IMG/VR virus record: IMGVR_UViG_3300047311_000827
From: a virus
Reading direction: 5' to 3' (one strand)
DNA length: 45,878 nucleotides
How positions within the stretch are numbered: position 1 is the stretch's first letter; each line of letters opens with the position of its first letter. Below are positions 11,090-45,878 of the stretch, piece by piece. The notes below the pieces were generated by a model. That model ran no database searches. It was not told the DNA's origin and worked only from the letters and a program-made list of their open reading frames with translations. A program made the position numbers and the translations under genes.

Positions 11090-11530
11090 GTGGCCGACCA
11101 CGATCTTCTCAAGCGGATGTTCGAGATGCAGCACGATCTCCAAGCGCGACTCGGGACGCCGATGATCGGCGACGACGCGAGGCGGAAACGCGGCGGCATC
11201 CGGATCAACTCACTCGCGGACCTCAACGAGACCGACCGCGCTGTGATCAAGAAGTGGCACAAGGAGTTCTCGCTCGCGCTGATGATGGAGGCGAGCGAGT
11301 TGATGGACTGGAGTCCGTGGAAGCACTGGAGCTCGCGACTCGGCAACAAGGCGGAGATCACGTTCCTCGGACCCGACCACCTGCGCGAGGTCCACATGGA
11401 GATCGTGGACTGCTTCCACTTCCTGATCGATCTCGCCTTGCTGTACGGCTTCACCGCGGAGGATCTCTTCGAGACGTTCGCCGAGAAGAACGCGATCAAC
11501 CACCGCCGCCAGGACGGAGGCTCGTACTAA
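11090..11530 (+). CDS. All-alpha NTP pyrophosphohydrolase (dimeric dUTPase/dCTPase-MazG type)
   Basis: 146 aa, GTG start with an AGGAGG SD. MQHDLQ...EFSLALMMEASELMDWSPWKHW...EVHMEIVDCFHFLIDLAL...FAEKNAINHRRQ fits the dimeric dUTPase pattern (E..E....WK.W....E.vD..hF.......K...N..Rq). Confidence 0.7.
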   Translation: MADHDLLKRMFEMQHDLQARLGTPMIGDDARRKRGGIRINSLADLNETDRAVIKKWHKEFSLALMMEASELMDWSPWKHWSSRLGNKAEITFLGPDHLREVHMEIVDCFHFLIDLALLYGFTAEDLFETFAEKNAINHRRQDGGSY

Positions 11531-12042
11531 TGATCATCGTGGAGGGAGTCGATCGCGTCGGCAAGTCGAGCTTGGTGAAGGTGCTCGCACGGAACCTTGG
11601 ATTCAAGATCGTTCACTGTGTCGTCCCGCCGGACGGCGAGAGCGTCTTCGACTACCACATGCGCATGATCCAGGACGGCGAGGACGCGATCGTCGATCGC
11701 CTCCACTGGTCGGAGTACGCGTACGGCGAGACGTACCGCCAGGGATGTGGGTACACGAAGAAGCAGTGGCGTCAGCTCGAGGACGAACTCCAGGCGGCGG
11801 AGGCTGGCGTCATCCTTCTCAGCGACTCGCTCAAGCTGATCCGCGAGCGTTGGGGACCGGAGGAGCAGTTCGACGTCGCCGGCCTCGTGCGGCTCGACAG
11901 TTTCTTCTTCGACGTGTTCTTCAACCGCGCGCCGTTCAAGTCCGACCTGCCGCGGCGTCACTACAACTGGCGTGACTTCTTCAACCCCGACGGGTCCGAG
12001 CGCGGCGACGCCTTGAAGACCATGACGAAGTCGCTGTGGTGA
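11530..12042 (+). CDS. P-loop deoxynucleoside monophosphate kinase (thymidylate-kinase-like)
   Basis: The ATG overlaps the upstream TAA (TAATG). MIIVEGVDRVGKSS matches the Tmk P-loop pattern (EG.DG.GKsT). Confidence 0.6.
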   Translation: MIIVEGVDRVGKSSLVKVLARNLGFKIVHCVVPPDGESVFDYHMRMIQDGEDAIVDRLHWSEYAYGETYRQGCGYTKKQWRQLEDELQAAEAGVILLSDSLKLIRERWGPEEQFDVAGLVRLDSFFFDVFFNRAPFKSDLPRRHYNWRDFFNPDGSERGDALKTMTKSLW

Positions 12043-12482
12043 AGGACATGCGGCTCGGGGTTGACGAGTACTTCATGCAGATCGCCCACGCGACCAAGAC
12101 GCGATCGACCTGCCCACGCGCCCAGGTGGGAGCTGTCCTCGTGTCTGACGGTAGGATCGTGAGCGCCGGATTCAACGGCGCGCCTCACGGGGCGCCTCAC
12201 TGCAGCGAGTTCGGGTGCTTCATCGTGGACGACCACTGCCGCGGGGCGGTCCACGCCGAGATCAACGCCCTGCTCCACGCCGAGAAGTACGGCGACACGA
12301 TCTACGTGACCCACACGCCGTGCCTCGAGTGCCTCAAGGCGATCATCAACCACGGCGTCATCCGCATCGTCTACGACCTGGACTACCGTGACGACGCGCG
12401 CGAGCAGTTCATCGGCTGGCTCGCGAACAACCCGACCACGAAGGTCCGGCTGGTGATGCAGCGGATCAGGAGGGAGTCGTGA
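12036..12482 (+). CDS. dCMP deaminase (ComEB/cytidine-deoxycytidylate deaminase zinc family)
   Basis: RSTCPRAQVGAVLV...GFNG...HAEINAL...THTPCLECLKAI. GTG at 12036, or ATG at 12048 (MRLGVDEYFMQIA). Confidence 0.85.
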   Translation: MVKDMRLGVDEYFMQIAHATKTRSTCPRAQVGAVLVSDGRIVSAGFNGAPHGAPHCSEFGCFIVDDHCRGAVHAEINALLHAEKYGDTIYVTHTPCLECLKAIINHGVIRIVYDLDYRDDAREQFIGWLANNPTTKVRLVMQRIRRES

Positions 12483-12976
12483 GCGAGCTGACGAAGAACG
12501 AGGAGGCCGCGATCACCGCCTTCAACGAGGCCACCGGGCACGTCGCTCACAACTACGGCACGCGAGCCTCCATTGCTGTCGGCCGCGAGCTGATTAGGCT
12601 CCGCGCCCGCATCGCGGAGCTGGAAGCCGAGACGAAGCGCGCGCGGGACTACTCCATCCACATGGATGGTCTCCTGCGTGCGGAGGAAGCCCGCATCGCG
12701 GAGCTGGAGCGGGAGCGGGACGCCTTCGGGGCTGGGTTGGACAAGGCCAACCACAAGCGGGCCGTCGCCGAGTCACAGCTCGCCGCTGCGCGGGAGGCGC
12801 TGAGCAACGTTCCGCATGAGGACCACTGTCTAGCGGACGCCGTGACCATCGGCCCCGCCGGCATCCGCGGCATCGTCAAGCGCGGGGGAGACCCCGACGC
12901 ATTCCCGCAGCCCTGCACTTGTGCGTTGGCCGCAGTCCGCGCCGCTCTCGACGGGCTCGGGGAGAAAAAGGCGTGA
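12479..12976 (+). CDS. Hypothetical coiled-coil protein
   Basis: 165 aa. The GTG overlaps the upstream stop (GTGA) and has an AGGAGGGAG SD. Confidence 0.6.
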   Translation: MSELTKNEEAAITAFNEATGHVAHNYGTRASIAVGRELIRLRARIAELEAETKRARDYSIHMDGLLRAEEARIAELERERDAFGAGLDKANHKRAVAESQLAAAREALSNVPHEDHCLADAVTIGPAGIRGIVKRGGDPDAFPQPCTCALAAVRAALDGLGEKKA

Positions 12977-13881
12977 ACTACCTCGGCTCGTTCCCGTCGA
13001 TGGATCAGGCGTACCCCATCCTGGTGAGCCGAGTCGTCAAGGACGGCGAGAGGCTGTCGCCTCGCGGGATGGTGTCGATCGAGATGAGGCCGGCGTCGTT
13101 CACGATCACTGATCCGACACGGGCCGTGTACACCGGCGAGAAGCGCAAGATGAGTTACAGGTTCCTCGCGGTCGAGACGCTCAGCTACCTGGCGGGTCTC
13201 GGCGACGAGAAGACTGCGAAGCTCCTGGTCGCGGTGAACAAGAACCTCGATCCATACCTCAACAAGTTGACGATGAAGTTCGACGGCGCCTACGGACCGC
13301 GGCTCAGGCAGAGTCTCCCGGCGGTGGTCGCGCTCCTCGATCGAGATCGCGACAGCAGGCAGGCGGTCGCCGCGATCTGGTCTCCCGGCATACCGGAGTC
13401 GATCGACGTCCCATGCACCGTGTCGCTGCACTTCTACGTCGCCCACGACAAGCTCGAGATGACGGCCTACATGAGGTCCAACGATCTGATGTGGGGAACG
13501 CCGTACGACGTCGCGGCCTTCTGCATCCTGCAGCAGGCGGTGGCGAAGAGCCTCGGCCTCCAGGTGGGCGCGTATCACCACGTCGCCGACTCGCTCCACG
13601 TCTACCAGGAGCGCGTGCCCGACGTCAAGGACGACAAGACGATCGACCTGCCGTTCGAGCCGTTCAAGAAGATGGTGTGCGAGTCCATGCACCCGAGCTC
13701 GATCATCCGTCACATGATGGATGACTCGGCCGACCTGATCAAGCAGATCTACAGGTTCTTGAACCTCGACAGCATCGACGGTCCACCGAAGACCGCCAGC
13801 CACCTGCGGTTCTTGTTCGGGCAGTCCAAGGACCCGGTGGAGAACGCGTGGGTACGCATGCTCAACGGGAAGTGGCTGTGA
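12973..13881 (+). CDS. Thymidylate-synthase-fold enzyme with Asp at the dUMP-specifying Asn position; predicted dCMP hydroxymethylase/methylase-like
   Basis: Frame 12919..13881 trimmed to the GTG at 12973 (GTGA overlap). It aligns without gaps to E. coli ThyA from Cys146 to residue 181: PCTVSLHFYVAHDKLEMTAYMRSNDLMWGTPYDVAAF against [37 protein letters not shown]. The later motif is SLHVY. Confidence 0.7.
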   Translation: MNYLGSFPSMDQAYPILVSRVVKDGERLSPRGMVSIEMRPASFTITDPTRAVYTGEKRKMSYRFLAVETLSYLAGLGDEKTAKLLVAVNKNLDPYLNKLTMKFDGAYGPRLRQSLPAVVALLDRDRDSRQAVAAIWSPGIPESIDVPCTVSLHFYVAHDKLEMTAYMRSNDLMWGTPYDVAAFCILQQAVAKSLGLQVGAYHHVADSLHVYQERVPDVKDDKTIDLPFEPFKKMVCESMHPSSIIRHMMDDSADLIKQIYRFLNLDSIDGPPKTASHLRFLFGQSKDPVENAWVRMLNGKWL

Positions 13882-14981
13882 GGGCGATCGGTTACTTGGT
13901 CGGCGGCGGCTCGATGTCGCTGGGCGTCGAGGCGGCTGGGTTCGAGATCTCCGGCGTGTGGGAGACGCCCGGTTACTCGAAGAACGCTCAGTCGTGGGAT
14001 CTCAACCGCCCGATGCTCGCGCACTCGGTCCAGGAGGTCCGCGCTGGGTCTCGATTCCTGGGCGGTGACGACGTGGATCTGATCTACGGCAACCCGCCGT
14101 GTGGAGGTCTCTCCAACACGACGGGTGCTCAGCACACGAGTCCCACGAACCTCGTCATGCAGAACTGGTTGGGGATGGTGATCAAGGCGAGGCCTCGCGC
14201 GATCCTGATGGAGAACGCGTTCCAGCTCGCCACCGGGGCCGGCGCCCCGATCCGCGATCTCCTCGGCTCACAGCTCGACGACGCGGGCTACAAGTCGACG
14301 ATCTGGCTGATCGACTCCTGGGAGCTCGGTACGCCTCAAGTCCGGCGGCGCGCGTTCCTGGCCGCGGTCAAGGAGGGCTCGATCGTTGACGTCAAGTGGA
14401 GCGTGCCCTACCAGTTGAGGGAGGAGAACTCGTATCCCAAGGAAGTGTGGGCGGAGACGCGCTTGATCGACGCCGACCCGAGCCCCAGTCCCTTCTACGA
14501 CGTCGCCGGGACCAAGATCACGCAGCACTGGTGGAACAAGACGGGCTATCAGCACAACGAGCTGCTCAAGGAACATGGCGATCGGATCACGCTCGGCAAG
14601 TTCCTCACTCCTCACGAGCTCAAGATGCTCGAGGCGCGCGCGGCGGCCGGAATCAAGTCAGCGAAGCGAGAGATCGAGAAGCGGATGCCATTGCTCTGGC
14701 CTGAGGTGCCGCGCGCGTTCTCGAAGCCCAAGCAGTTCAAGGTGATCAGGCGGCTCAGGGCCGAGGCCCCGAGCTTCGTGGTGCTGTCGGAGTTCAACCT
14801 GGCTCACCCGACCTTGAACCGCCTCCTCACGATGCGCGAGATGGCGCGGCTCATGGGCTACCCGGACGACTGGGTGTTCCACGTCCTCCACCCGCGGCTG
14901 GTCGCGCAGGGGGTGCCCGTGGCGAACGCGAGATGGGCGGCGTCAAGGCTCATGGAAGCCTTGACGGCCGCCCACTCGTGA
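13878..14981 (+). CDS. DNA (cytosine-5) methyltransferase
   Basis: GTG at 13878 (GTGA overlap). Motifs: I YLVGGGSMSLG; IV YGNPPCGGLS; VI LMENAF; VIII TPQVRRRAF; IX RLLTMREMARLMGYPDDW; X AQGVPV. Confidence 0.85.
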   Translation: MRAIGYLVGGGSMSLGVEAAGFEISGVWETPGYSKNAQSWDLNRPMLAHSVQEVRAGSRFLGGDDVDLIYGNPPCGGLSNTTGAQHTSPTNLVMQNWLGMVIKARPRAILMENAFQLATGAGAPIRDLLGSQLDDAGYKSTIWLIDSWELGTPQVRRRAFLAAVKEGSIVDVKWSVPYQLREENSYPKEVWAETRLIDADPSPSPFYDVAGTKITQHWWNKTGYQHNELLKEHGDRITLGKFLTPHELKMLEARAAAGIKSAKREIEKRMPLLWPEVPRAFSKPKQFKVIRRLRAEAPSFVVLSEFNLAHPTLNRLLTMREMARLMGYPDDWVFHVLHPRLVAQGVPVANARWAASRLMEALTAAHS

Positions 14982-21000: not shown

Positions 21001-21081
21001 CGGTACCGTGAGATCGATCTGAACGAGCGTGACCCGAGACGCCGTGTAGCTGCGCCACGCGTTCTTGAATGCCGTAGTCAC
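18055..21081 (-). CDS. Large tail tip / host-specificity protein (Tal/J-like)
   Basis: 1008 aa, GTG start overlapping the upstream stop (GTGA). It is the second gene after the tape measure. GQPIPIAYGNF resembles the J/Phage-tail_3 motif. Confidence 0.6.
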   Translation of the reverse strand: MTTAFKNAWRSYTASRVTLVQIDLTVPSSRTLRYATHETHTPDGNTWQEGVTCETVRESVDLLGTGMDPVDATIRFAKVRDASQSSTGGTIHDLLSSFLFQNAVVTIYLWEATLTSFSDALQVFKGRVSRPVEMSVSGVSLYLLQDMAWNKLVPPTVVDKVSYPDSPDGSQGQPIPIAYGNFNALNMRTPWTSALANKSLQEDSGAGLGAVPLILVDSGVGAAKVKLVAACHLCTDILSRANGRTAFIVGGNLLSPLDVTGITATLAVGESKLEITDENTVAYAAIIPMDVRASENTATNPKRAMDPFDETSFASLDQSTTHGILQLILPNANNLGQVQSVQYYVAWSGNAGNANNLRIQSRNPAVGFGTTTANWVATATTPAVQTGTWATADWGPTQAWDFGSGGTTHAWDVRIDFVAGAANKASIYWVALVVKYRPQRSTVTPGSLTKTYVVQSGHKSRRSRNYLKEVDIIVEPTLKLEGQFYGNIQGQPDDFPGTFTGVSASLIEKPPDILRHLMVTYGGVAGSDFQTGAGVSGSFVDVRSTLRNGQASDIKLAAWLGDRTTVQRAAQAIALQGGLCVYLDRLSNKWLAYPWKVGAISEYDIAIGWDDTGSFTAEETSTVDVRHAIRIKYGYDNFKGKTLFEAFVNDSGSSQGFTSPTTRDQLLKIVGGVNDRLDYNFAATDQHLTLTATTYTKAIDLASEVQGKMRVASGGTELSVGWGFSIKAGYNDVIAFIRATGPTNHTATLNPGDYTAESLAAECARAMNTVVPVGVTIGCSYDHSVNLFTWTIAGDTMEMCGLDAGVPPGTGTSANKAMGNLSISPGGGTYAASITAAIPRYRDRFWFSVNSSSIFNNKWSSGTNAATNCATTMGYDKTDSGFVNNNTGGYTRGTRETDAATFVSYYGPRDEDQVVADFIRDEVTAVEFRNRLFDFSAKPRTIVRFNTFRMPDAHRMMTFQFDATINPKVAFPRYGSDGSWVGKTMRILQVDQGLGPNYSTEILAISAE

Positions 21082-21881
21082 GGCAACCTCACGAGCGTGA
21101 CATCGATGTCCCAGGTGTTGGAGAAGCCCTTGGTCTCCGTGTACTGACCGTCTTTCAAGAAGACTTCATAGATGTGGTCTTCCCAGTCCAGGAACGCGAT
21201 CGAGCCGCGCTGGAGGAACGCCTGGACCCAGGCATCCCTGACCGTCGAGGACGCGCTCCTCCAGGGATGCGTGAACATCATGCCGTCGTCTCCCAGGATC
21301 GAGATGACGGTCACCCCTGACGGCAGTGGGATCTCCAGGCGGTTCTTCATCGGCGTGCGCGTGCCGCCAGGCGAGTGGATGCCCCCCAGGTCGGTCATCG
21401 ATCCCACGAAGAACTTGCCCAGGGAGAAGACCACGTTCGCGAGAGACGGGCTGATCGTGAACCTCACCGATCTGACGTTGGCCACCGGCGAGAACGTGAC
21501 GAAGTCATCCCTGAACGAGTTGAGCCCGAGATTCCCCATCGATCCCTGGAACGTCCAGGTGCCGCCTGGAGTGTAGGCTCCGGTCTGAGTCGAGAAGTCG
21601 AGGAAGAAGCCGCCGACGCTCGACAACCTGGACCCGAAAGCCGCAGCCGTGTCGATCGTGAACGCCGCGCCGAGATCGAAGTCGACGTTGTATTGAGTTG
21701 GCGTCGAGAGCGGACTCGACTTCCACAGCGTGTAGCGATCCGGCGTCAGGAGGTTCGCCATGACGTACGGCGCGGTCTCGATCAACGCCGGGGCGCCGCC
21801 GCCGGTGCCGTTCTTGAGCAGCACGCCCGGATTCCGGTCCAGGGTGAGGCGGTTGAGGAGCAGCAGTCTGGTGTTCGACAT
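21078..21881 (-). CDS. Distal tail protein (Dit)-like
   Basis: 267 aa, immediately downstream of the tape measure (TGATG overlap). The call rests on position and size only. Confidence 0.45.
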   Translation of the reverse strand: MSNTRLLLLNRLTLDRNPGVLLKNGTGGGAPALIETAPYVMANLLTPDRYTLWKSSPLSTPTQYNVDFDLGAAFTIDTAAAFGSRLSSVGGFFLDFSTQTGAYTPGGTWTFQGSMGNLGLNSFRDDFVTFSPVANVRSVRFTISPSLANVVFSLGKFFVGSMTDLGGIHSPGGTRTPMKNRLEIPLPSGVTVISILGDDGMMFTHPWRSASSTVRDAWVQAFLQRGSIAFLDWEDHIYEVFLKDGQYTETKGFSNTWDIDVTLVRLP

Positions 21882-34130: not shown

Positions 34131-36029
34131 TCAGAAGTCCTTTACCCAGCTTTTCCCTTGCTTCTTGATGGCCTGGGACGCCTGGACGATAACGGGCGGC
34201 AGATCGGCCTGGCCGGAGTCAGTTGTCAATCGCGTGCTGATGCGTTTCGCCAACTGGCCGAGTGACTTCACGTACAGTGGCCCGCGGATGTAGAGAGCGG
34301 CCAGCGCGTAGACCTCGAGATCGAAGGCTTCGTTGCGATCTCTCAACTTCTCCCACTCGCGGACGGACCCGCGGCCCTTGACGTACTTGAAGACCGCCCT
34401 CTCGGCCGTCAGCTGCTCGATGAACTCGTCATCCAGCCAGTGTGGGAGGTGCATGTAGCCAGGGCCGGGCTGGCCCACCATGAGCCTCGACATAACCATG
34501 TCCTTGCCCGTGTCCACGCAGATGACGAACAGAGGGATGCGATAGCGGTTGGTCTGGGACGGTCTCTCCACGATCGGCTTGCCGACCTGCGTGCCGCCCT
34601 TGATCGCGAAGACGTTGCGGTTGACTCTCGCCGCGCAGTACCTGTACACTGACTCGGTGTGGAGGCCACCAGAGTCCACGACGGTGATGTCGGCGCGGAG
34701 CTTCTTGCCCGACTCGGTGACGAACTCCTGAGCGATGAACTTGTCGAGCTCGCGCCACACCTCGGCCCTGGATGGATCGCCGAAGATCTGGCTGAACGCG
34801 ATCAGCCAGGACTCCTCATCCTGGCCGTAGCCCTTGGCCACAGCCTCCAGACGGTCACCCTGGGTGTCCACGGCGATCACGATCGAACCCACGCCGTCCG
34901 GCACCTCGGCCTTGTAGGTCTCGCGCCGCCTCTTGATCACGCCGGCTTCGATCGAGTCCCCAGGCTCCTCGAACGTCTCCGCGAGCACAGTGTTCACCCA
35001 GGCCTTGAGCTTGAAGCGATCGTTCTTCGAGGAGATGAACTCCTCCGCGCACTCTCGCCACGACTTCCATCCGAGAGGTGAGTACAAGCCGGAGATGTGG
35101 AATCCGACCGTGCGTCCATCACCTTCAGCGGTCGCTCGCCACTCGCCGCGCGCCAGCATGTCGGTCTTGTGCCTCTCCTCGACCTCCTGGGCACAGCCGC
35201 CGCAGACCATGTGGGCGGTGGCTGGGTCGTGGTTGTGCCACTCGATCCTGTGGTGGCCGCCGTCGTCGTGCTTCAAGAAGTCCGAGTAACCGCTCCAGGT
35301 GAGGAAGTCTCTATGCCCGCAGTGGGGGCACGGGATGTAGTACCTCTGCTGGTTACTCTGCTTGTACTCGCGCTCGATCCGGCTGACGTGACGGACGGTC
35401 GGCGTCGAGGCCATGTAGATCTTCTTGCGGGCGAACGTGGTCGTGCGCTTCTCGGCGAGCGAGATCGGGTCTCCCTGGCCCTCCAGGTCTCCTGGATACT
35501 CGTCCACTTCATCCATGAAGAGCTTGCGGATCGGGGCGGACCTGACGCCAGCGGAGCTGTTCGCGCCGGTGATCAGGAGGAGACCACCTGGAAACTCCTT
35601 CGCCCGGATCGTGTTGCTGCTGTCGCGGGTCCTGGCCTCGGACACTCGCTCGCGCAGGACCGGCGTGGAGTCGATCATCGGCGCAATGCGCTGCTTGGAC
35701 ACGCGCTCGGCGACCTCGACCGTCGGCTGGACCATCAGCATCGGGCACGGGTCTCGGTGGATCGTGAAGCCCATCCAGTTGTTCCCGATCTCAGTCTTGC
35801 CCACCTGGGCGCCGCCCACCACCACCACGCGGATCGCCGGGTGCCAGGGCGACAGGCACCTCATGATCTCCTTGACGTATGGCGTGCGCGAGGTGCGATA
35901 CCTGCCCGCCTCGGCCGAGGCGATCGCGCTCAGGTAGCGGTACTCGTCTGCCCACTCGTCGACGTACAGCTGACGGTCTGGGCGGAGGCCGGCGCAGGCC
36001 GAGCTCTCGCACCTCTCAATCAGGCTCAC
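34131..36029 (-). CDS. terL: Terminase large subunit, lambda gpA family
   Basis: 632 aa, GTG start. LYVDEWADEYRYLS...RTPYVKEIM...VVVGGAQVGKTE (Walker A). A zinc motif reads CPHCGH...CGGC. The C-terminal nuclease region includes ITVVDSGG. Confidence 0.85.
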   Translation of the reverse strand: MSLIERCESSACAGLRPDRQLYVDEWADEYRYLSAIASAEAGRYRTSRTPYVKEIMRCLSPWHPAIRVVVVGGAQVGKTEIGNNWMGFTIHRDPCPMLMVQPTVEVAERVSKQRIAPMIDSTPVLRERVSEARTRDSSNTIRAKEFPGGLLLITGANSSAGVRSAPIRKLFMDEVDEYPGDLEGQGDPISLAEKRTTTFARKKIYMASTPTVRHVSRIEREYKQSNQQRYYIPCPHCGHRDFLTWSGYSDFLKHDDGGHHRIEWHNHDPATAHMVCGGCAQEVEERHKTDMLARGEWRATAEGDGRTVGFHISGLYSPLGWKSWRECAEEFISSKNDRFKLKAWVNTVLAETFEEPGDSIEAGVIKRRRETYKAEVPDGVGSIVIAVDTQGDRLEAVAKGYGQDEESWLIAFSQIFGDPSRAEVWRELDKFIAQEFVTESGKKLRADITVVDSGGLHTESVYRYCAARVNRNVFAIKGGTQVGKPIVERPSQTNRYRIPLFVICVDTGKDMVMSRLMVGQPGPGYMHLPHWLDDEFIEQLTAERAVFKYVKGRGSVREWEKLRDRNEAFDLEVYALAALYIRGPLYVKSLGQLAKRISTRLTTDSGQADLPPVIVQASQAIKKQGKSWVKDF

Positions 36030-36501
36030 CGGACATCTCCTCCAGGGCTTGCCTGATCTCAGCCGCCACGAGCCTGTGCATCTCGGCGCTGTCCACCATG
36101 CCGGCGATCATCGGGACCACGCGATCGGGCACGGACATCAGCTTGTCCCTGGTCATCCGGCAGATCGTGAACCACTTCTTGCGGACCTCCTCGGCGTCGA
36201 TCAGCTTGCCACGTAGCTGCTCAAACTCGAGCTTAGCCTTGCGAGCCTTGTAGGTCTCGTGGACCGCCCGGGCCGAGTTGAAGTTCATGGTCTCCTTGCC
36301 GCGGAGACCTCCCTTCCTGGGCGTACCGTTGACGGAGTTCAGCGCCTTCGTGGTGTCCGTGTTCGCGGCCCACTGGCGATCCGCCTCGGCTGGGTCCACT
36401 CGCTTCGGCTTGCCGGTTGTGGAGATCCTGCCCAGCTGCACCGCCCTGGTCACGGCGGTCTTGGAGACTCCGCGGTGCCTGGCGTACTCGACGATCGTCA
36501 T
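36016..36501 (-). CDS. terS: Terminase small subunit, Nu1-like (N-terminal winged helix)
   Basis: Frame 36016..36576 trimmed to the ATG at 36499-36501. MTIVEYARHRGVSKTAVTRAVQLGRIS, then a helical region ...EFEQLRGKLIDAEEVRKKW. It overlaps the terL start. Confidence 0.65.
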   Translation of the reverse strand: MTIVEYARHRGVSKTAVTRAVQLGRISTTGKPKRVDPAEADRQWAANTDTTKALNSVNGTPRKGGLRGKETMNFNSARAVHETYKARKAKLEFEQLRGKLIDAEEVRKKWFTICRMTRDKLMSVPDRVVPMIAGMVDSAEMHRLVAAEIRQALEEMSGEPD

Positions 36502-36596
36502 GAGTTTCACAGCACCCACTCTCCTGATTGCTTGGCAACCTGACTGGAGCCAGGGCTCGCGATCCAGCAGATCCACCAGTGCCCACTCATCGTAAC

Positions 36597-36873
36597 CCTG
36601 GTCTGCCGAAAGCTCTCCAGGCTCAGAGATCCGATACCTGGCTCCACATCCACCCGACCTATGATCCCTGGTTGCCTGGTTGTCCTGCCAGGGGCCGAGA
36701 TCTGGGACCTGGCTGGCGTCCCGTAACCCCTTGATACTGCACGGCCCTTTTGGGCCGTTCCTGGGGTTGTCCTGGCTGGCGATCCCGGGTCCTGGCGCGG
36801 TGGATATGCACCTGGCCGTCGGATCGCCGCCCTGGTCACGTCCTGGAGATCCTGGCGACGTCCTGGTGCCTGG
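36597..36873 (+). repeat. Phased array of 14 same-orientation CCTGG pentamers (cosB/terminase-binding-site candidate)
   Basis: CCTGG starts at 36597, 36637, 36667, 36675, 36708, 36760, 36771, 36791, 36811, 36831, 36842, 36851, 36862 and 36869. CCAGG starts at 36550, 36617 and 36688. The spacings cluster at 9-11 and 20 bp. Confidence 0.8.
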
Positions 36874-37068
36874 GCAATATGCCTTGACACCCTCAACCTA
36901 GACATTCTTCGGGGTCGCCGGCACCCTCGCGGCACGGCGAGGAAGGACCCAACGACGAAGTCAGAGGCCATCCGTCATTCGCGGCCGTCCGTCTCGATCG
37001 AGTCGCGATCTCAGTGTGAGTGTGATCCACACGCATGGACCTCGATCGTACAGCAGCTCTCAGTCCGT

Positions 37069-37115
37069 GAGAGCCGCGCTCGGTCACCTGCCTGTGACCT
37101 CGAGCGCGGTCTCTC
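37069..37115. other. Extended imperfect hairpin (about 19 paired positions) in the non-coding region
   Basis: gagag+ccgcgctcg (37069-37082) pairs with cgagcgcgg+ctctc (37101-37115) with one bulge. The inner arms gtcac/gtgac (37083-37098) also pair. Confidence 0.55.
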
Positions 37116-45751: not shown

Positions 45752-45878
45752 CTCCTTCTCCGCCACGACCATGATGTACTGACGCCTAGGCAGGAGGCTG
45801 TGCCTCATGAAGCCGTCGCTCGGCGCCGTCACTCGCTTCCAGATCACGCGTCTCACTTGCCGAACAGCTCCCTCACGT
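45752..45878. repeat. Terminal direct repeat copy 2 (exact copy of 1-127)
   Basis: See copy 1. Confidence 0.9.

Follow-up and report, generated by a model that had tools for sequence, protein, structure and literature searches.

A helically phased CCTGG array between the predicted cosN and terS of an uncultivated phage as a candidate cosB-type recognition region

RESULTS

The terminase genes and the CCTGG array upstream of terS

We analyzed IMG/VR record IMGVR_UViG_3300047311_000827, a viral sequence of 45,878 nt that we call the window and to which all coordinates refer, 5′ to 3′. Its ends form an exact 127-bp direct repeat (1-127 identical to 45752-45878); this terminal duplication indicates a circular assembly at k = 127 and hence a unit genome of 45,751 bp. 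The packaging genes lie on the minus strand. terS (36016..36501) encodes a 161-aa protein assigned to the small-terminase family phrog_57 (E = 1e-32), and terL (34131..36029) encodes a large terminase with ATPase and nuclease domains whose matches to PF05876 (E = 4e-90) and PF20454 (E = 5e-83) place it in the gpA family. Upstream of terS is an 890-bp noncoding gap, which holds an array of short repeats.

The initial annotation had described this array as 14 co-oriented CCTGG pentamers at 36597-36873 with three CCAGG nearby, and our recount gave identical positions. On the plus strand, a group proximal to the predicted cos site starts at 36760, 36771, 36791, 36811, 36831, 36842, 36851, 36862, and 36869, and a cos-distal group at 36597, 36637, 36667, 36675, and 36708; CCAGG occurs on the same strand at 36550, 36617, and 36688, i.e., as three inverted copies. 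In the sense of the packaging genes, CCTGG reads as CCAGG. The gaps reported from 36760 onward (11, 20, 20, 20, 11, 9, 11, and 7 bp) were reproduced, and the array does begin 96 bp upstream of terS, whose ATG lies at 36501 on the minus strand according to independent gene calls as well.

The density of the motif stands out against every background that we computed. Base composition predicts ∼0.5 copies per 277 bp, in line with the earlier estimate of fewer than one, and the genome's own strand-averaged frequency predicts 0.97, compared to the 14 observed (Poisson p = 3e-12). Among all 4- to 6-mers, CCTGG was the most enriched word in the interval 36577-36913. A genome-wide count, which the initial annotation had called for, found only 5 copies in the next densest 280-bp CCTGG window, making the array a clear outlier; the densest CCAGG window holds 8 copies, at ∼21.1-21.4 kb inside a gene. 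Across the genome, CCWGG is present at 279 sites versus 105 in dinucleotide shuffles (2.7-fold), and its excess over an order-3 Markov expectation is just 1.29-fold, which indicates that the high background is codon-driven. For the same reason we rejected a signature of VSP repair or restriction avoidance for CCWGG.

The copies are also phased. At a 10.2-bp period, a Rayleigh test gave R = 0.76 (p ∼4e-4 versus random placement), with 12 of the 14 sites lying within 1.2 bp of the common phase, and the proposal that the motif sits on one face of the helix is thus borne out.

Several other sequence features of the window were recorded. The second-densest CCWGG cluster (21107-21423) consists of 8 to 9 CCAGG on the plus strand within a gene for a 267-aa protein (21078-21881, minus strand); we rejected it as a regulatory array since Leu-CTG-G and Trp (TGG) codons account for the motif. 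GATC is very frequent in the window at 14 per kb, a frequency that trinucleotide content explains, and was dismissed as a second array motif given its 1.11-fold Markov ratio and the lack of local enrichment. A 27-nt inverted repeat (36628-36654 and 36799-36825) that seemed to be centered on the IHF-like site described below matches at 19 of 27 positions, no better than the best shuffles, and was likewise discarded. AT-rich words are very rare: AATT and TTAA have one site each in 45.7 kb, several A/T-rich pentamers are absent, and CTAG occurs at 0.51 of its Markov expectation. A GC3 of ∼0.85 to 0.9 probably accounts for the pattern as a whole.

Contig ends place the predicted cosN next to the array

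We located genome ends by searching for contigs that encode an identical TerS and then for contigs that carry the gene across the gap. Three contigs from three samples, L063 (Logan, 45,518 bp) and L067 and L068 (both JGI), start at 36925 and run toward terS, and L070 (Logan, 16.7 kb) ends at 36914. The two sets of ends share 12 nt, GGTGCCGGCGAC in the terS sense, an overlap far below any assembler k-mer overlap. Shared terminal sequence of this kind is expected from end-repaired 5′ cohesive ends (PMC5557969). A distinct relative, L074 (TerL of 632 aa; C-terminal part of TerS 72% identical to that of the window), starts at the homologous base with GGTGCCGGCGACCCCG, the same 16 nt. From these coincident, overlapping contig ends we place cosN at 36914-36925, inside the interval of ∼36880-37100 that the initial annotation had forecast. 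The right end is given by one contig (L070) and one similar place, and the 12-nt length of the overhang therefore depends on it too. The far end of L063 falls ∼245 bp short of the unit genome, a point against this placement. Taken together, the contig ends point to fixed termini with short 5′ cohesive overhangs, as in a cos site of the lambda type.

The predicted 12-nt cohesive end (36914..36925) reads GTCGCCGGCACC on the plus strand, and a partial dyad, recognized by reading the sequence, is centered in it (CGAGGGTGCC|GGCGACCCCG). The features described next are given on the minus strand, in the terS sense, unless noted. The 12-mer lies within a core, GGGTGCCGGCGACCCCG (36910..36926), that is kept in relatives, and on the right-end side of cosN is a conserved box, GGGTCCTTCC (36941..36950), which is cosQ-like by position alone. 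Left-end bp 13-52 (36874..36913) form a spacer between cosN and the first repeat, a counterpart by position to the lambda I2 segment; it carries the family-conserved CTAG (36896-36901) and CAAG motifs and has a GC content of 50%, versus 63% for the genome. Beyond it follow the cos-proximal cluster (36760..36873), with nine CCAGG at left-end bp 53, 60, 71, 80, 91, 111, 131, 151, and 162, and the cos-distal cluster (36597..36712), with five at bp 214, 247, 255, 285, and 325. Inverted copies accompany the distal cluster at plus-strand 36688 and 36617, with the third at 36550, so that the 14 direct and 3 inverted copies cover left-end bp 53-376. The position claimed for a cosB, between cosN and terS, is thus where the array is found: the ends at 36914/36925 put cosN on one side, the first repeat follows 53 bp from the left end, and terS lies beyond.

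An imperfect palindrome (37069-37113; arms of ∼19-20 bp, GAGAGCCGCGCTCGGTCAC ... GTGACCTCGAGCGCGGTCTC) lies 150-200 bp from cos on the right-end side. It has no U-run on the gene strand and falls inside the 245 bp that L063 lacks.

The two clusters are separated by a 52-bp gap, which splits the array into 9 + 5 copies and contains a sequence, TATCAAGGGGTTA (36724..36736), that fits the IHF consensus of E. coli perfectly. It is the single match to WATCAANNNNTTR on both strands of the 45.9-kb window, with 0.11 expected, although the IHF of the host may differ from that of E. coli. The same gap region contains a small perfect palindrome, GGCCC-TTTT-GGGCC (36743..36756), read from the sequence. 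No site of the E. coli consensus was found in the cos regions of relatives. We treat this IHF-like site as a lead only, the consensus being that of E. coli and the likely host not a proteobacterium.

TerS carries a predicted winged helix-turn-helix domain

The description of terS as Nu1-like may hold at the level of the predicted fold but does not hold for the sequence profile. With TerS as the query, Pfam gave no match to Phage_Nu1 (PF07471), only a subthreshold hit to DUF1441, and PDB sequence searches found nothing. In AF2 models, residues 1-50 form an N-terminal winged helix-turn-helix whose wing is a beta structure, residues ∼55-72 make up a disordered linker, and the C-terminal half is long and helical. 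A Foldseek search with the whole chain was uninformative (E of 1 or more); the N-terminal domain alone (pLDDT 78) was more useful and returned BldC (6AMA), the terminase-related 7LWR, Pukovnik Xis (4J2N), and the DNA-binding domain of lambda gpNu1 (1J9I; TM-score 0.66, rmsd 2.5 Å, probability 0.80, E = 1.2). All of these matches have E values of ∼1, as the domain is small (50 residues).

Relatives share the cos core and differ in their repeats

We compared relatives from IMG/VR contigs and metagenome-assembled genomes (MAGs), several of the latter labeled Candidatus Eisenbacteria, with TerL 50-64% identical and TerS homologues ∼40-50% identical to those of the window. Nearly all share the cos core GGGTGMCGGCGACCCCG, which is thus kept in about 20 relatives whose large terminases are of the gpA type. 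With at most 3 mismatches, GGGTGCCGGCGACCCCG is found upstream of terS in L001, L002, L003, L006-L009, L011, L014, L018, and L019, and a scan of viral contigs added true family members that have the core, as do the Eisenbacteria MAG loci. Also kept in relatives are GGTMCTTCC, ∼20 bp before the core, and CTAG and CAAG motifs after it.

This conserved cos block is followed directly by a short repeat that is specific to each lineage. The repeat is GGTACC(C) in L007, L008, L009, L014, and L018; GGTAGCC in L002, L093, and L096; TTGCCAC in L079, L080, and L085; GTTTCCAG in L001, L097, and L081; GTWACCACC in L006 and L019; GTAACA in L077; and CGAAC in L084. Relatives have 2 to 7 copies within ∼35-130 bp, often in tandem at 7- to 11-bp spacing, and L006, L079, and L085 have a second, inverted repeat cluster. 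Counted from the predicted left end, the first copy is always found at bp 47-59, compared to bp 53 in the window. In most relatives, cos and terS are separated by 1.3-1.6 kb and one intervening gene, which shows that the repeats follow cos and not the terS start.

The window carries an expanded version of such repeats. No relative has a 14-copy phased array, and among L001-L019 there are no CCAGG arrays, other motifs being present instead. Intermediate states are seen in the nearest relatives: within the 75 bp before its contig end, L073 has 5 CCWGG, and L074, the closest relative seen through cos, has just 8 in mixed orientation, so that the 14-copy co-oriented array is not conserved. In L075 (1-92), whose TerS is 57% identical, CTGGATCGCC is repeated ∼4 times just upstream of terS in place of CCAGG; this contig stops short of cos.

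The repeat motif broadly follows the TerS helix-turn-helix. Loci that share a motif share this segment (five GGTACC, three GGTAGCC, three TTGCCAC, and two GTWACCACC loci), and it differs where the motif differs, reading RGVTPAAVRKAIKSGRI in GGTACC loci, RGVTHRAVQKAIA[SA]GRI in GGTAGCC loci, and RGVSKTAVTRAVQLGRI in the window. The co-variation is not strict, since three loci with GTTTCC-type repeats have three different helix-turn-helix sequences. We regard it as suggestive of recognition of the repeats by TerS and as confounded by shared ancestry.

In L001, L002, L006-L009, L014, L018, L019, L077, and L081, the first gene after the cos repeats encodes a ParB-like N-terminal motif (e.g., ...WPIERVIPYARNPRTHS...); no such gene is present in the window or in L074. 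Within genome collections, the closest relatives by TerL (57-64% identity) come from MAGs of Candidatus Eisenbacteria (L089-L097), which makes this phylum a possible host. Two of them, whose contigs measure 452 kb and 903 kb, are probably prophages.

Metagenome scans gave 0 matches for a strict cos pattern and at least 120 loci for a loose cos-plus-CCAGG pattern, with no true family cos among the matches listed. A fixed-spacing CCTGG pattern found three unrelated tandem arrays in viral contigs, each of at least 30 copies. One (L060:560-1090) immediately precedes a 148-aa ORF and a TerL gene (phrog_38, E = 3e-111), and the other two (L059:11700-12150 and L061:1-450) adjoin primase/helicase-like genes; CCTGG arrays thus have no general link to packaging.

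The phage encodes a divergent C5-methyltransferase

As the initial annotation had stated, the phage encodes a C5-methyltransferase (13848-14981; PF00145, E = 4e-28). Compared with E. coli Dcm, its catalytic motifs align and its target-recognition region has no similarity; the best PDB matches, with low scores, are Dnmt1 and M.HaeIII. We dropped the attempt to derive its specificity from PDB chains or from E. coli Dcm, as the catalytic motifs alone align. The enzyme is divergent, with PPCGG for PCQ and ENA for ENV, and ends a plus-strand cluster (11254-14981) that also contains a thymidylate-kinase-like gene, a dCMP deaminase gene, an ORF, and a divergent thymidylate-synthase homologue (73 bits). 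This cluster of nucleotide-metabolism and base-modification genes may mean that the phage DNA contains modified pyrimidines.

DISCUSSION

Our data suggest, with a probability that we put at roughly 0.75, that the CCTGG array functions in a lambda-style cos site as its cosB-type recognition region, expanded, it would appear, from the 2 to 7 copies usual in relatives to 14. Termini, conservation, and geometry were established in silico, and on them we build a model in which binding, bending, and stoichiometry are inferred. A TerL of the gpA family would nick cosN at 36914/36925 to leave the 12-nt 5′ cohesive ends seen as contig ends. TerS would bind the phased pentamers, from bp 53 on, through its N-terminal winged helix-turn-helix of the Nu1/Xis/BldC type. 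The sites are spaced 10 to 20 bp apart, have a common orientation, and share a helical face; a TerS oligomer that contributes several DNA-binding domains, or TerS units joined head to tail in a filament, could therefore occupy one side of the DNA. This complex would anchor TerL over cosN, 41 bp away, for cuts staggered by 12 nt, and after cutting would hold the array-bearing left end, as lambda Complex I does, with packaging proceeding toward terS. More tentatively, a host-induced bend at the IHF-like site might fold the DNA so that the distal cluster comes to lie on the proximal cluster. A composite version is a long shot: TerS would polymerize head-to-tail on one face of ∼280 bp, as BldC or Xis might, the DNA would fold at the IHF-like site into a nucleosome-like initiation complex that occupies every DNA-binding domain of a TerS oligomer, and the CCWGG sites would make packaging depend on C5 methylation by the divergent methyltransferase of the phage.

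The array might instead be bound by a late-gene regulator or a host nucleoid protein that serves late-operon expression or DNA architecture, and be near cos only incidentally. It does belong to the 5′ leader of the terS-terL-portal operon, being part of the 890-bp noncoding gap, and in most relatives a different, ParB-like gene directly follows the repeats. We nevertheless consider this unlikely: the repeats stay at 47-59 bp from the cos core whatever gene follows and however distant terS is, they broadly track the TerS helix-turn-helix, and a scan of the array region yielded no sigma-70-like promoter, although the promoter type of the host may differ. A role of the array as RNA, as a sponge of the CsrB/RsmZ type or a structured terS leader, or else as an iteron replication origin, is barely credible. 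In the terS sense, 6 of the 14 copies extend to CCAGGA, shuffled versions of the leader fold somewhat less well than the leader itself (z = -2.9), and two unrelated viral contigs have tandem CCTGG arrays by primase-like genes. However, GGA is found in just those 6 of 14 copies and lies mostly in stems of the minimum-energy fold rather than in hairpin loops, no Rfam family matched at E values up to 1, and Rfam, promoter, and terminator scans of the array region gave nothing useful. As for an origin, the conserved core is 5 bp, whereas iterons typically span 17 to 22 bp; local GC reaches a minimum of ∼50%, so that an AT-rich region for unwinding is absent, and no replication gene is adjacent, the neighbors being peptidase, VRR-NUC nuclease, and terminase genes. 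The array thus has the features of neither a sponge RNA nor an iteron origin, and the predicted physical end of the genome is 41 bp from it.

A further reading leaves the cosB function in place and adds a layer to it: the CCWGG identity of the pentamers would matter, with C5 methylation by the phage gating terminase recognition as Dam does at P1 pac. Dcm classically targets CCWGG, a C5-methyltransferase gene is present in the phage, and the genome shows no avoidance of the motif. Yet the enzyme resembles Dcm at its catalytic motifs only, and a symmetric methyltransferase site is indifferent to the orientation of its central A:T pair, whereas the 14 copies are co-oriented. Moreover, relatives have GGTAGCC, GGTACC, TTGCCAC, and other repeats at the same position, so the mechanism of the family does not need CCWGG. 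Such gating is highly unlikely in our estimate, and methylation-dependent recognition, which the initial annotation had itself offered as speculation, stays speculation, with no link between the methyltransferase and CCWGG.

If the cosB reading is correct, the array has some practical value. How small terminases recognize DNA is debated, with proposals that include oligomer wrapping, lateral binding, and readout of DNA shape instead of sequence, and part of the difficulty is that known TerS sites are few, long, and irregular. The array would offer a defined natural substrate for cryo-EM and footprinting of a TerS-DNA assembly, with a predicted cut 41 bp away. The relatives would form a specificity series, in which one cos core is combined with varied repeats and helix-turn-helix sequences and which would allow swaps. 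Further, public assemblies can reveal the cos ends of uncultivated phages, here ones that probably infect Candidatus Eisenbacteria, through contigs whose ends coincide. While cosB regions as a kind are known, the pentamer unit, the 14 co-oriented and strictly phased copies over ∼277 bp, and the bipartite arrangement around an IHF-like site are new, and to our knowledge the cos architecture of this phage lineage has not been described before.

Three known systems invite comparison. At phage P1 pac, seven Dam-methylated hexamers flank the cut, and headful packaging starts from pac. Like pac, the locus described here has clustered short repeats beside a predicted terminase cut, the repeats include a methyltransferase target, and the phage encodes a methyltransferase. 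Unlike P1, the contig ends indicate fixed cos ends and not headful packaging, and the repeats of relatives are not CCWGG.

BldC and Xis are among the best fold matches of the TerS N-terminal domain. Direct repeats in varying number are bound by BldC, which oligomerizes head-to-tail along one DNA face (PMC5859096). This geometry fits co-oriented sites at multiples of ∼10 bp. BldC and Xis differ from TerS in being small stand-alone regulators or architectural proteins rather than terminase subunits, and the BldC repeat is AT-rich (AATT).

The 12-nt 5′ overhang of lambda is GGGCGGCGACCT, and the overhang predicted here from contig ends is of the same length and of related sequence. The full arrangement in lambda is cosQ-cosN-I2-cosB(R3-I1-R2-R1)-Nu1-A. 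In lambda, the order is cosN, I2, R3, an IHF site between R sites, and then Nu1 and A, with the I2 spacer at bp 18-50, R3, the first TerS site, from ∼bp 50, and IHF acting at I1 between R3 and R2 (PMC4856287). The two cos regions differ in that lambda has three R sites of ∼16 bp, whereas the phage analyzed here has 14 direct and 3 inverted pentamers in an array of ∼277 bp that is helically phased at 10.2 bp, and in that its TerS has no detectable sequence similarity to Nu1 and its host is probably not a proteobacterium. They are alike in their gpA-family TerL, in the partial dyad at cosN, in a spacer of ∼40 bp followed by a first repeat at ∼bp 50 and in having terS and terL immediately downstream. 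The IHF-consensus match between repeat groups may be a further parallel, and, as far as the structural model can tell, the winged helix at the TerS N terminus belongs to the fold class of that of Nu1.
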